Shown piece by piece: positions 30,001 through 36,000 of a stretch of 38,787 bases of DNA (positions are counted from its first letter, which is position 1; each line of letters begins with the position of its first letter). This DNA comes from Escherichia coli (GTDB taxonomy: Bacteria > Pseudomonadota > Gammaproteobacteria > Enterobacterales > Enterobacteriaceae), in NCBI RefSeq assembly GCF_003334385.1, contig NZ_QOWN01000040.1. One strand, 5' to 3'. Made by a program: the position numbers.

Positions 30001-33000
30001 TCAGGGACAGAAATAAAGCCGGAAAGTGACTACGTGTGCACACATCTGTTTTCCGGGCTGCAGGCATCGTGTTATTTTCTGAAATGCAAAATAATAAAAA
30101 ACAAGGACACATCATGAAGGATGAAATACACAGTACCAGCATTAACCCGGATGTTGTTGAGCAGTTTCTGGCCCTTATGAATACACATTGTAAATCCTCA
30201 GAAGAGGCGCTCACCATGCTGAGTACGCTTTGTTACAACCTGATGATGACATGCGGTATCCATTCCATGGACAGCCAGATGCTCAATGGGCATGGGATAT
30301 CCATGCAACTTCAGGGGATTGATATTGCCGAAAAGCCAGGCAAGAATATTCACTAACCTGAACAGGGCCTGAAAACGCTGTCTTTTCAGGCCTCTGCAGG
30401 CAAAAACTGATGACAACAAAATTTCTGCGTTTGTACCCCACCGATGAAAAAGACAAAAACTCACACCGGGCTTCTCATCATTAAAGATAAAACCCGACGT
30501 GTCAGCCTCTACGAAACGCCAACGGCATGGTGTATCAGGGGGCAGGAGTGCTACAGCAAAAGCACTGGACGCCGCTGTGGCAGCCACGACAGTCTGAGCA
30601 GACTGCGCCTGGACAGCATTAAGCCTGTTGAATGAGTGGTGGCACCATGAAAGATAACAACACAACCGCCACCCCAGAAACCTGGAAAATGCGTTTTCTG
30701 GCCAACGGGACATCCGGCACATGGTTTTACACTGACGACATTGCAGTCACTGACGCGTGGCTTCGCGCGCACCCGGATGATGTGGAGGTTATCCCTCTCT
30801 GCCGGATACAGCCCCGCCAGCATTCCCATGAACAACATATTGAAGAACTCCGCGCAGCCCTGGCCCGGATGCTCCATATGCATCATATGATGCTGGAAAC
30901 CACACATTACCGGGAAAATATCACCGATGCCCGTTGTATCCGTGAAATGCATGAAGCGCCATTACAGGCGCTCAATATTCTGTCCAGATACCCGCATAAA
31001 AAGGACGAGGTGTGACGCATGTGGCTACTGATTTTCTGGCTTTCATCGCCCTTTAATGTCTCTTCCGGTGATGCCCGTCAGCCCACACTGGCGGTGCACA
31101 GCCAGGCCTTTCATACCGAACGGGCCTGCCGCGATGCATTGCGCGCCATTAAAAAGGAGAATGTTGGCGAATTTTCTCTGCGGGGCGTTTGTGTTTCTGA
31201 CGGAAATACGAAGGAGGAGGCTGAGAGCTCATGACGGATATTACTGACAGACATACACTTCGCCGTATGTCCTGGGCAGAGCTGAGCACTACGGCCCGGG
31301 ATGCAGAATCAAAACATGATTACGAAAGAGCCAGAATACTGTGGTCATACGCATACAGTATTGCAACAACCAGCATAAATAAAAATCTGGCCAGTGCACA
31401 TATTCGTTACTGTGACAAAAACATACACCTGATGAGTATAATCAAACTTTATTAATTATCTGTTTCTGTAAACAACATACACTCATAAAAGATAATATCT
31501 TACACAAGTAAACCAAACTGTCACAACGAAAATAACGGCCTTGCTTTATTGCATTATTCTGAAGATATCAGTATATAAGATGAGCATTCGTGGCTGGTTA
31601 ATATTTCCTCTCAGCATTCAAGACCACATCGTTCATTAATGCCTCATTTTAATGAGGCATTAATGATTACCCAGATTAGAACCTGTTTAAAACGCTGAAT
31701 CTGCCTTTCCTGTAAGTAGAGGCTCTTCCGGTAAAGTCATAATCGGGACATCATGTTCACCATTAAATACCGATACATATTCAGTGTAATTACCCTGTAA
31801 TAATGGTGAAATCAACGGCAAATTCCGTGTTTGTATTCCGGTGAGCCACTGGAAAATTTCCGGAAAGCGACGGGCACTGATATGAATATCATGGTTCTGA
31901 TGCGTTACGATATCACTGGCCATAATAACAAAGGGGACATCATACCCTGAGCGTAAACCCGGCGCGTGATGAACAGGAGTGCTGTCTGAACTGACAGACA
32001 GGCCATGATCAGAAAAGTAGACCATAGCAAAATCCTCTCCACGAGCTGTCACCATCTCATAAATATTCTGCAGAAATTTATCCAGTTTCACCAGTGTCGA
32101 TAAATAACAGGATACTTTTCGCCCAAATATTTCACGGAATGGCTCAGCATCATTAAAAAGTCTGTCACAGGGATTAGGATGTGACCCCATCATATGAACA
32201 AAAATTACTTTTGGAGAGGATGAATTAACCGCCTCCCTGACGAACTGAAGCATGTCTTCATCATCTGTCCGGCGTGATGCAAAACTTCCCTCTTTAAGAA
32301 AATATTTCTTATCTGCATTGCTGGCAACAACAGAAATCAACGTATCATGTACCCCTAAAGCCCCCTGATTTGATATCCACCATGTTTCATATCCTGCATT
32401 GCTGGCAAGCGTAACCATATTATTACCAGGATTGCCTGATTCAGCATAGTCAAGAATAAGTGTTCTGCTGAGTGAATCAATGGTATTGGCCGCAGATGAA
32501 AAATAGCCATTAATAAATATACCCGGTGCTGAATTCATCCATGGTGTTGTCGGCAACGGATACCCATAGACTGAAAGATAATCCCGCCGGACACTTTCAC
32601 CAATAACAATAATTATTGTTTTATATTTCTTTTCAACACTCACTATTTCCCATGAGCTTTTTTGATTGTTATTAAGTGTTTCATAACGAATCATTTCGGC
32701 TCTGGTTTCAGCAACGCCTGTCACCACCTCCACAGCCATACGTCTGGGCCATGCATTGACCGACAATGCAATAAAAAATAACAGAAAGAGAACGCCTTTT
32801 TTGTTTCTTTCTCGTGTACGCCAGAACCAGACAGTGAACATAACTATCATCAATGAGATAATAAAATAAATAATGGGTATACCTGCGATAAACTCTTCTG
32901 CTTCTGTTACATTAGTCTGCATTAACGATGCAATAAAGCTGCCGTTAATCTTCCCGTAGATAATACCCACCGGAGCATAAAATGCACTAAACAAAAGAAA

Positions 33001-36000
33001 ACAGCAGACACATACTGCTGACAGTATATTCTGCCGTCCTGTCATAAACAGCAGAAACAAAAGAATAATATTACCAAATGCATTCTTCTCTGTATATCCA
33101 CAACACCATGAAACAATTACAGAAAATAACAGACAAACGAGAACTTTTTTATTCACTGCATGGATGCAGAAATTTCTTACCCCACTCAGAAAATATTCGG
33201 ATTTTTCTTGCGCGCGTAACTTACCTGGCATTCTTTACACCGATACAGACAGTTAATTAAATATTCATGGGCACTTTATGTGAAATAGTTCACAAAAGTA
33301 TCTCACACCTGTACATTCCGGCACCTATGATACCAACAAGAATATTTTCAACAACTCATTCCCTGAATTCATAAGGCACAAAATGATTATAACGCCTCAC
33401 AACCACGAGGCGTTAATCATAATGCATTTAGTGTATAAATATACCTTTTGCTCTTTTAGAGAGATAAATATACAAAATAAAAAGAACAGCAATAACGCCA
33501 TCAATAAATATGTTTTCAATACTTCCATCAGGAGTATAATCAATCCCAACAATATAAAAACAATAGACATAACTTACAGCATAATAAACGATATAAACAA
33601 GATAAATATACAGAAGCAATCTGTTAACATGTCTTTTTCTTCTAAAGAAGGAGAGTATAAAATACATACATAACACAGAAAGAATAATAAACACCCCTAT
33701 AGATATAATAAAATACTCTTTTACCTGTGAGTCTTCGTGCAGCGACATGTACAATGAATAAAAAGTTCCAGCCAGACTCAGCCTTGTGATAAATATATAA
33801 ACAACAGACAAAAGAATAATAAAAAGAACTATACCAAACTTTGGTCTTTTTTCTTTTTGTAGCATTACAGCATTTTCCTTCATCATATACACGTTCTTTA
33901 CACTATTCCTGTAAAATTTCGATAAAAGCTCATCAGATTTTGTGTGAGGACGGTGACAAAAAATGAGTCCGGTTTTTAAAGGGTATATGCAGAAACCATC
34001 CGTGTGGTTCCGGTCAGCGTGTCTGAGACCTCAACATCCCGGGTGATGATTGTCATTCCGGACTGACGCAGCCGCTGCACATCTGCGGCAATACGCTGAA
34101 TACCAAGCCAGAACAGACCATCCAGCGCGGTGACAATTAACCCGCTTTCCAGCGCCAGTTTCAGCCGTGCTGTCGGAGCTTTAACCTCCCCGGCTATATC
34201 AGTGAAACAACGTGTCGTCATGCCATAGCTGTCCACCCGCCGTATTCGCGTCGCAAGACTGTAACTGAAGCTATCAGGCACGCCGGATAAGTCATTCTGC
34301 AGACTGTATACACATCCCCGCTGCCGCTCATTGAATACGACTTTTTTCTGGCTGAGCAGCCATTCCCGCCGCAGGCTGTCAATCATCTGCGGTGTCCGGG
34401 TTAACAGCAGACGAAACGGCAGTTCAAAACTGGTCACGTAATCAACATTCAGCAAAGCTGTCCGTAGCCGCTCCCTGGCACCTGCTCCGGTATCACGGCA
34501 TTCACGCATGACATCTGCCCACTGGCGCATCAGTCGCGGAGACTCATTCCTAGCCCTGAACTGATATTTCTCAATCTGATAATCAATATGTTCCTGCATA
34601 CCGTCACCGGATATCTGTTGCCGTATCATCACGGATATCAGCGTACTGGAATTCATGCCCTGCGTGAAGTATCACACTGCCAAAAAAAACACACCTGAAC
34701 GTTATTATTTCGCAATATTAATTGCACCTGTTTTCATAAATAAAAAGGAGACGATGAAATGATAAAATATATCTTTTCACTCACCATTATTTTTTCCGCT
34801 TCTCTCTGTGCCGCACAGATTCAGGGGCACGTCATCCGCGTTCTTGATGGTGATACGCTGGAAATATTACAGGACAAAAAGCCTGTCAGGGTCCGTCTGG
34901 CTAATATTGATGCACCGGAAAAGAAACAGCCCTTTGGACGCTGGTCAGCCACTCAGTTGAAGGACCTGGTGGCCGGAAAGCCCGTAACCGTGCAATACGC
35001 GCAGACAGACAGGTATGGCCGTATTCTCGGCCGGGTCTATACCGCTGACGGCACAGAAGCAAATCGCTGGCAGGTCCGTAACGGCGCTGCCTGGGTGTAC
35101 CCGGACTACAATAATGACTATACTCTCCCGCCGCTCCAGCGTGATGCCCGCGCCCTGAAGCGGGGATTATGGGCAGATAAAAATCCGGTACCACCATGGA
35201 CCTGGAGAAAACAGAATAAAGAATAATTATTTGCTGATATGAAGAAAAAAACCATTTCAAAGAAAATAAATGGCAAAAATACAGCATGGGGAAAAATTGC
35301 CATTTTTACCGCCGCGTTATTTTTAATATTTGCTGTCAGCTGGCCGTAATAAGCAGAATAACAGAAAGGTGTAAAAATGAACCTGGTTGATGCATTTGTC
35401 ACTAAAGTGATATCCGGACCGTATGAAGAATACGGAAAATGGTGGGTGGATGTTGAATATATTTCCTGGGGAGTTCCGGGTAAAAGCCGGCTCATGTTTG
35501 ACTCACGGGAACAGGCACAGGAAGTGCAGGAAGGTTTTCGATTTTTAACCTGAGCATATTTTGTTAAAGGGCAGAAGGCGGTGACCCTCTGCCCTTAAGT
35601 ACGTTTCCGGGATTATCAGTCAACCAGTTCCCGGATCAGTTCCAGGATTGCTATCACTGCGTTAGCCACAGCAACAACCGCCCTGAGAACGATGATTAAC
35701 CTGTTAATCATCCGCTTCTCCATCAATGGAGAAAGAACACCGTGGTTTGCCCTTACATTGCCTGTCGCCACGTTTTCTATAGTGTCAGTTATAGACAGTT
35801 CTTCTCCGGCCAGAGCACCAAAACCAGCACCACCTGATGTTTTGGCCAGGACTTGCAACCTGTTCATCCCGGTGAACGATATGCCGGAAAGAACGTGCCT
35901 CAAAGCTGACACACCGAGTATATACTTATACTGTGCTTGCAGAAATATTATTTCAGCCGTATTATTTCATAGTCAGTTATAGGCAGTTATCTTCCGGTCA

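Follow-up and report, generated by a model that had tools for sequence, protein, structure and literature searches.

An I-complex (IncK/B/O/Z) conjugative plasmid of Escherichia coli carries an optional cassette of two genes that is best explained overall, with a probability of roughly 0.6, as encoding an OpgE-like phosphoethanolamine (PEtN) transferase with an envelope glycan as its acceptor. The cassette was found in a stretch of 38,787 nucleotides from contig NZ_QOWN01000040.1 of the assembly GCF_003334385.1, hereafter the window (38.8 kb), and its two genes are encoded on the minus strand: one for a 514-aa inner-membrane PEtN transferase of the OpgE-like or YjgX subfamily (31687-33231) and one for a 154-aa four-helix membrane protein of the DUF2569 family (33428-33892, GTG start). 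Plasmid-borne PEtN transferases attract notice owing to mcr. In this regard, over 100 I-complex plasmids of E. coli, among them virulence plasmids of Shiga toxin-producing E. coli (STEC) such as pO113, have a gene with the name 'lipid A phosphoethanolamine transferase' that falls outside the lipid A class, and the plasmid transferase should not be taken for a latent colistin-resistance gene. The enzyme, a member of a known family, had not been characterised and is already annotated generically in RefSeq; to this we add the structure of the cassette, an exclusive DUF2569 partner, two deeply diverged alleles and a CRP-type site that is conserved. The identity of its acceptor would fill a gap in the envelope biology of E. 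coli, and could expose a surface-modification trait carried along by conjugative plasmids.

The cassette and its plasmid setting

The window is typed as IncK2/Z, MOBP and MPF_I, and matches I-complex plasmids at 97-100% identity, in agreement with the conjugative plasmid context proposed in the original prediction, a note made from the DNA sequence alone. Many IncK2/Z plasmids share with it a backbone that is 97-98% identical. The closest backbone relative, pDETEC33, is annotated with neither the transferase gene nor the DUF2569 gene, and the blastn breakpoints against this plasmid delimit a cassette of 2571 bp (31407-33977) at a position where pDETEC33 has 27 bp instead. The cassette contains exactly the two genes and no further one, lies in the excA-trbA variable region, and is bordered by a 13-nt direct repeat on the plus strand, ACNGTGACAAAAA, at its left (31409-31421) and right (33950-33962) edges. 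Its GC content is 36.8% (40.2% for the transferase gene and 28.4% for the DUF2569 gene) whereas the tra genes have 56% and the window as a whole 52%, so the AT-rich island of the original prediction is indeed present. Such an AT-rich insertion or deletion with respect to pDETEC33, optional among relatives, also bears out the suggestion of horizontal acquisition, and from these comparisons the cassette reads as horizontally acquired, optional cargo of I-complex plasmids. An exact copy of the cassette locus occurs in pJKHS006_1, the sole plasmid of the PLSDB database with an identical cassette. In all the copies examined (e.g., pECOED and the contigs with the window-type allele) the gene order is the same: excA and hok, then the transferase, DUF2569 and a helix-turn-helix (HTH) gene, followed by nuc and trbA.

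A phosphoethanolamine transferase on the OpgE side of the family

The minus-strand open reading frame (ORF) of 514 aa was recovered as originally described, and its translation contains the three motifs on which the family assignment had been founded: IGESVRRDY (residues 209-217), HMMGSHPNP (346-354) and YFSDHGLS (405-412). Four or five hydrophobic segments precede residue 165 and a Sulfatase domain follows (PF00884, E 1.2e-38, residues 204-465), together with a weak match to EptA_B_N; a polytopic membrane N-terminus and then a periplasmic sulfatase-fold domain is the architecture of the membrane PEtN transferases in the alkaline-phosphatase superfamily. The residues E212, T250, H351, D408, H409 and H421 align with E246, T285, H395, D465, H466 and H478 of MCR-1, a protein for which the roles of the catalytic and pocket residues have been described (PMC10525099). 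The check on the catalytic threonine and the zinc ligands that had been called for therefore gave all of them in place, and E212, T250, H351, D408 and H409 are invariant across 69 homologues. An AlphaFold2 model of the protein (pLDDT 88.7, pTM 0.85) had as its top Foldseek match the periplasmic domain of E. coli EptC, and over the full length it aligned with NmEptA (5fgn) and MCR-1 (9nww) across 541-545 columns. The domain match, the nucleophile and metal ligands and the structural comparison all agree with the membership in the PEtN-transferase family that had been predicted. The gene is intact, its catalytic site is complete, and the residues and the fold point to a catalytically competent enzyme.

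A closer placement within the family leads away from the enzymes that were originally named. Against reference proteins drawn from K-12 and, for MCR-1, from pHNSHP45, the BLASTP score of the transferase was 230 bits for OpgE (32% identity, residues 51-478), compared with 106 for EptC, 89 for YhbX, 48 for EptA, 46 for EptB and 42 for MCR-1, and the idea of a protein typical of EptA/EptB/EptC and MCR-type enzymes is not sustained by these values. OpgE is thus the closest characterised relative by a wide margin, and around 40 clusters at 50% identity outscore its 230 bits against the transferase. Among the curated NCBIfam families the protein fell under every cut-off: the best score was that for CptA (102 bits versus 404), with 73.5 bits versus 561 (NF007160) and 73.4 versus 500 (NF028537) for EptA, and 13-26 bits versus 1200-1250 for the MCR families.

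In this line, a neighbour-joining tree of 110 sequences (capped Kimura distance, 100 bootstraps) grouped the transferases of the window and pECOED with a bootstrap of 100, and placed the plasmid alleles in a subclade, also with a bootstrap of 100, that comprises E. coli chromosomal relatives (about 52% identity), an Erwinia protein (P0013) and a further homologue (P0016). A superclade with a bootstrap of 94 joined the transferase, OpgE and all the database matches and left YhbX, EptC, EptA, EptB and MCR-1 outside, and the last three were split from the transferase side in 100 of 100 bootstraps. A location on the glucan (OpgE-type) side was the outcome that the original prediction had itself named as speaking against its proposal, and the lipid A or polymyxin reading is weakened by this result as well as by the low MCR and EptA scores. 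A role in cationic-peptide resistance, by analogy, may survive the OpgE placement, because the OpgE homologues PtdA and PtdB contribute to defensin resistance. The transferase is not an orthologue of E. coli OpgE either, since it stands with yjgX-type genes in a separate subclade with full support.

The likeness to OpgE (YbiP), which is class IX in the published classification of PEtN transferases (PMC10525099), extends to the architecture, the catalytic residues and the acceptor pocket, where the positions of MCR-1 K333 and E468 are G293 and L411 in the transferase, and Gly and Leu in OpgE too. OpgE, however, is a chromosomal K-12 gene, whereas the transferase is plasmid- or island-borne, AT-rich and neighboured by DUF2569. 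With MCR-1 and EptA (class I) the transferase has in common the two-domain fold, the nucleophile threonine and the zinc ligands, and MCR-1 is also plasmid-borne, but the clade (bootstrap 100) and the residues of the acceptor pocket are different and the scores reach only 42-48 bits.

A kinship with the Shigella Lpt-O was considered and dropped, as no BLASTP similarity was found between the transferase and the Lpt-O of pSFxv_2 (NC_017320, 1523-3043). Lpt-O (Opt), encoded in this S. flexneri plasmid, is an O-antigen PEtN transferase that converts the serotype (PMC3458804), and the likeness is a functional analogy only: a plasmid-borne gene, a surface glycan acceptor and a C-terminal sulfatase domain. 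Lpt-O belongs instead to the lipoteichoic acid (LTA)-synthase family of the Prokaryotic Genome Annotation Pipeline (PGAP), and resides in a small mobilisable plasmid and not in a conjugative backbone. Plasmids of 3-7 kb with relatives of the transferase at 30-33% identity were likewise considered as Lpt-O plasmids and rejected, as the lpt-O primer is absent from them and they carry OpgE-like genes instead. More generally, very small plasmids (3.4-9.6 kb) from Klebsiella, Enterobacter, E. coli and Acinetobacter bear an OpgE-like PEtN transferase gene, which in the two whose annotation was read is essentially the sole non-housekeeping cargo. These occurrences suggest a repeated selection for mobile copies of this class of enzyme.

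YjgX-type relatives on the chromosome

The K-12 pseudogene yjgX (b4575) is 53% identical to the transferase, on par with the chromosomal relatives of the subclade. Together with the intact YjgX-type island genes, it has in common with the plasmid gene an identity of 51-53%, the fully supported subclade and its condition of mobile-DNA cargo; unlike it, these genes are chromosomal and were without a DUF2569 partner in the four loci examined. The 'putative phosphoethanolamine transferase YjgX' has been described at islands linked to the tRNA genes leuX, pheU, pheV and selC (PMC6174562). Deletion of yjgX was a false positive in a screen for susceptibility to the human neutrophil peptide HNP-1 (PMC4808223), although yjgX is a pseudogene in K-12. 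Relatives at 65-69% nucleotide identity were found in 2504 of the 5426 complete E. coli genomes, and the closest chromosomal ones are solitary genes in unrelated contexts. Altogether, the yjgX-type island genes and the IncK/B/O/Z cassette define a subfamily associated with mobile elements, with a relative in about half of the complete E. coli genomes.

Some of these loci show a recurring pairing of a gene for an outer-membrane protein with a PEtN-transferase gene. The common chromosomal relative P0010 (52% identity; 5113-7500 of locus L003) lies near glcA and the yghD remnant of a type II secretion system (T2SS), directly after an adhesin-like gene for a 242-aa outer-membrane beta-barrel. A relative in pB16EC0876-3 (106-2113 of locus L011) likewise follows an outer-membrane beta-barrel gene, and K-12 opgE (7451-9598 of locus L008) adjoins ompX.

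A co-inherited membrane protein of the DUF2569 family

The small membrane partner of the original prediction corresponds to an ORF of 154 aa (33428-33892, minus strand) with four hydrophobic segments and a match to DUF2569 (PF10754, E 2.4e-9, residues 27-153). PGAP and other callers place its start at an ATG (33886), for a protein of 152 aa. Its location on the same strand, just upstream of the transferase gene, also stands, with the qualification that a gap of 196 bp, holding a hairpin and a CRP-like site, lies between the two genes, and the arrangement does not imply co-transcription. The identity to E. coli YdgK is only about 20%, and a search of 5.8 billion clusters gave no relatives other than the plasmid alleles. 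In PLSDB the DUF2569 protein occurs in 119 plasmids and the transferase (at least 60% identity) in 111, a co-occurrence of about 1:1. The pairing of the two genes is therefore real but specific to the plasmid lineage. From it we infer a functional coupling, in which the DUF2569 protein would be a lineage-specific, co-inherited membrane partner of the transferase, possibly an accessory or specificity subunit. Such an exclusive pairing with an enzyme is a first functional lead for the DUF2569 domain family.

Distribution, alleles and selection

The transferase was found at full length in over 100 plasmids, as well as in 114 complete E. coli genomes. The HTH-nuc segment of the backbone was found, at a coverage of at least 80%, in 487 plasmids, compared with the 111-119 that carry the cassette genes, so the cassette is present in about a quarter of the related plasmids. 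Two types of alleles were distinguished. Allele A is that of the window, with other copies 92-100% identical, whereas in allele B, the type of pECOED and pO113, the transferase is 73% and the DUF2569 protein 54% identical to their counterparts in the window. The backbone proteins of the window and pECOED are 84-97% identical. The synonymous divergence between both plasmids reached 0.98 for the transferase and 1.6 for the DUF2569 gene, compared with 0.18 for traY, 0.31 for excA and 0.60 for nuc, and the dN/dS ratios were 0.18 and 0.20, respectively, for the two cassette genes. Both of them are therefore under purifying selection. Because its alleles diverge far more than the backbone and its dN/dS values are low, the cassette is best read as an old, co-inherited and functional unit that enters and leaves a younger backbone by recombination.

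Putative operators and hairpins

A perfect CRP-type palindrome, TGTGAAATAGTTCACA (33279-33294), is a candidate operator centred about 55 nt upstream of the ATG of the transferase gene. No other perfect TGTGA-N6-TCACA exists in the window, and the palindrome belongs to the part of the spacer that is best conserved between alleles A and B, with one change in allele B. A weaker CRP-like site with one mismatch, TGTGAGGACGGTGACA (33943-33958), precedes the start of the DUF2569 gene by about 55-60 nt and shows poor conservation in allele B. The stop codon of the DUF2569 gene is directly followed by a terminator-like hairpin (33390-33415, minus strand), which other copies of allele A lack and allele B does not conserve. 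A perfect hairpin with arms of 16 bp, about 20 nt past the stop codon of the transferase gene (31633-31666, minus strand), has an equivalent in the allele B of pECOED and is likely to mark the end of the transcript. From this arrangement, transcription of the transferase gene probably starts from a promoter of its own, with a putative CRP-type operator. No PmrA/BasR box was detected upstream of the transferase or DUF2569 genes, and the sole nearby match falls inside the downstream hairpin.

In pJKHS006_1 an IS1 copy (9856-10623) is inserted between TGTGAAATAGTTCACA and the ATG, 15 bp upstream of the latter. Its 9-bp target duplication corresponds to positions 33246-33254 of the window, and the insertion cuts the transferase gene off from the conserved CRP-like site.

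The acceptor and the competing explanations

Some genomic contexts of OpgE-like genes connect them with surface polysaccharides. In Proteus mirabilis H110 the gene lies amid LPS (lipopolysaccharide) galactosyltransferase-like genes; the best match to the transferase in the chromosome of this strain is a gene other than eptC, within a glycosyltransferase cluster, and has no match to the published eptC primers at up to 3 mismatches. In Acinetobacter celticus an OpgE-like gene adjoins ilvE amid polysaccharide deacetylase and glycosyltransferase genes, which is the position of the Acinetobacter locus for the outer core of the lipooligosaccharide (LOS). OpgE itself adds PEtN to periplasmic glucans (PMC3818809), and in Haemophilus ducreyi its homologues PtdA and PtdB do not modify lipid A but have effects on surface charge and defensin resistance (PMC4406763). 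These two proteins are likened to the transferase by their published description, and resemble it in being OpgE-like without osmoregulated periplasmic glucans (OPG) as an obvious target, but they are, unlike it, chromosomal core genes. Judging from such examples, the OpgE-like clade acts on glycans and surface structures other than the lipid A phosphates, with an acceptor that differs from member to member.

The mechanism that we propose follows from that of the family. The transferase would be an inner-membrane enzyme, whose periplasmic zinc-dependent domain takes PEtN from phosphatidylethanolamine, loading it onto Thr250 with the release of diacylglycerol, and would then pass it to a periplasm-exposed glycan. 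Because of the phylogeny and the pocket residues, an envelope glycan other than lipid A seems the probable acceptor, although with considerable room for doubt; the candidates are a periplasmic glucan, the LPS core, the O-antigen or some other polysaccharide, and not the 1 and 4′ phosphates of lipid A. The expected effect would be a change in the charge or in an epitope of the envelope, and not a colistin resistance of the MCR type.

Several points weigh against this explanation. The OpgE-like clade is functionally mixed, with the non-lipid-A targets of PtdA and PtdB and with Proteus and Acinetobacter homologues in LPS-core clusters, and the acceptor is not readable from a sequence. The deep branches within the OpgE-like superclade have bootstraps of 0-45 and are not resolved, and both the tree and the comparisons were made without Lpt6, Lpt3, PetG and PptA. 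With respect to the DUF2569 protein, co-inheritance is the one line of evidence for a partner role: no DUF2569 neighbour was found at four close chromosomal relatives of the transferase, nor any DUF2569-like ORF beside 80 homologues in other species, in a search of limited sensitivity with a narrow hidden Markov model (HMM) and YdgK. Finally, the best -10-like hexamer would place the CRP-type site near -38, and not at the canonical -41.5 or -61.5.

How the acceptor might be chosen otherwise is best judged against the same evidence. An enzyme of the MCR/EptA kind, which would transfer PEtN onto the lipid A phosphates or onto the phosphate of inner-core Kdo (3-deoxy-D-manno-octulosonic acid) or heptose and confer a transferable resistance to polymyxins or cationic peptides, would fit the overall architecture and the catalytic residues common to EptA and MCR-1, the fact that E. 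coli EptC is the best sequence match in the PDB, and the name 'lipid A phosphoethanolamine transferase' given by some GenBank submitters to the allele-B gene. It is nevertheless improbable in view of the 42-48 bits against MCR-1 and EptA compared with 230 against OpgE, the 13-74 bits in NCBIfam families of EptA and MCR, whose cut-offs are 500-1250, the separation from EptA, EptB and MCR-1 in all bootstraps, the loss of the MCR-1 pocket residues K333 and E468 and the lack of a PmrA box; moreover, the resistance prediction of PLSDB flags mcr-1.1 on pHNSHP45 and nothing in the feature table of the transferase. If the enzyme were simply a plasmid copy of OpgE that decorates OPG in exactly the same way, its position next to this closest characterised relative, the common pocket substitutions and the known function of OpgE (PMC3818809) would be explained. 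We regard this as unlikely all the same: the identity is only 32%, the transferase is in a separate subclade with a support of 100%, a redundant copy would be of little benefit in a host species whose reference strain, K-12, already encodes OpgE, and related OpgE-like genes occur in LPS-core clusters and in Pasteurellaceae without OPG (PMC4406763). Transfer to a protein, as for PptA of Neisseria or EptC of Campylobacter jejuni, is a very remote prospect. PEtN transferases of the superfamily are able to act on pilin and on flagellar proteins (PMC10525099), and the I-complex plasmids have a type IV thin pilus of their own (PMC10286972), whose PilS or PilV subunits, or another periplasmic protein, would be the target; but about three quarters of the plasmids with the same backbone segment are without the cassette, and close chromosomal relatives have no pil genes in flanks of 5-6 kb at four loci.

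A different kind of doubt is whether the cassette has a current role at all, since it could be a neutral or decaying passenger. Its absence from about three quarters of the backbone relatives would be expected of such a remnant, as would the truncated copies P0004 and P0012, the yjgX pseudogene of K-12, the IS1 that separates the transferase gene from its putative promoter in pJKHS006_1, and a probable silencing of AT-rich DNA by H-NS. Against this, dN/dS values of about 0.2 in both genes at a synonymous divergence of 1 or more, catalytic residues that are all intact, full-length copies in more than 100 plasmids and a conserved upstream palindrome make a passenger hardly plausible. A more specific form of glycan modification would be a surface-conversion module, analogous to the phage gtr and oac genes or the Shigella Lpt-O, that decorates the LPS core or O-antigen of the plasmid-bearing cell with PEtN. 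PEtN would then mask the LPS receptor of the PilV adhesins of the I-complex thin pilus, or that of LPS-specific phages, and provide next to excA an exclusion or immunity at the level of the surface; the fast-evolving DUF2569 protein would be a specificity or targeting subunit, and the two deep alleles at a single site would result from diversifying or frequency-dependent selection. This analogy is speculative, and we hold it to be distinctly unlikely in this form. In separate checks, a PADLOC scan for anti-phage defence gave no match for either cassette gene or the upstream HTH gene, the PHROGs matches of the cassette and upstream genes were only families without an assigned function, and the paper with TraDIS (transposon-insertion sequencing) data on an I-complex plasmid mentions neither cassette gene (PMC10286972). 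The match between the window and pMS7163B, the plasmid of that study, is broken into more segments than for plasmids lacking only the cassette, and pMS7163B is probably cassette-free, so the TraDIS data are uninformative on the cassette.

Neighbouring elements of the variable region

Directly upstream of the cassette and on the same strand there is a winged-helix gene of the ECs1377 family (33976-34599, minus strand), with the cassette beginning right after its stop codon. It belongs to the backbone and not to the cassette, because plasmids free of the latter, such as pDETEC33, carry the same gene. The protein matches HTH_39 of Pfam and the NCBIfam family NF052300 (297 bits, cut-off 190), as well as the uncharacterised PHROGs phage family phrog_24243. 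It is probably a protein of 207 aa that starts at M20 (34599), and not the full ORF of 226 aa (33976-34656), since the upstream extension is interrupted by two stop codons in pECOED.

On the other side of the cassette, an ORF of 528 aa (27908-29494, plus strand, 39.5% GC) has a TnsA-endonuclease-like N-terminal domain and a segment similar to the region 4 of sigma-70. It is placed between excA and hok/sok, is present in pDETEC33 and missing from pECOED and pJKHS006_1, and the segment 27723-29563 of the window has no counterpart in the latter two plasmids. This makes the ORF a second optional insert of the excA-trbA variable region. Next to it, a toxin-antisense module of the hok/sok type (pnd-like) occupies 29632-29938 on the minus strand, with a Hok-family ORF at 29632-29784 and an Rfam match to sok of 125.6 bits at 29782-29938. 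Two matches to AgrB-like antisense RNAs, of 47.7 and 51.8 bits (gathering score 40), were found at 35973-36060 and 36716-36801 on the plus strand, and as the same positions in related plasmids are annotated as DinQ-like dqlB type I toxin genes, they would be a duplicated toxin-antitoxin pair ahead of trbA. In the Rfam scan of the window these sok and AgrB-like RNAs were the only elements, with none in or beside the cassette.

Finally, the exclusion genes have a variation of their own. Over 24730-27634 of the window, compared with three plasmids, identities of 96-100% for TraW and TraX go together with only 83-85% for ExcA and with 92-94% for TraY. The divergence also holds against a plasmid with a cassette 100% identical to that of the window, which indicates that the alleles of the exclusion gene assort independently of the cassette.

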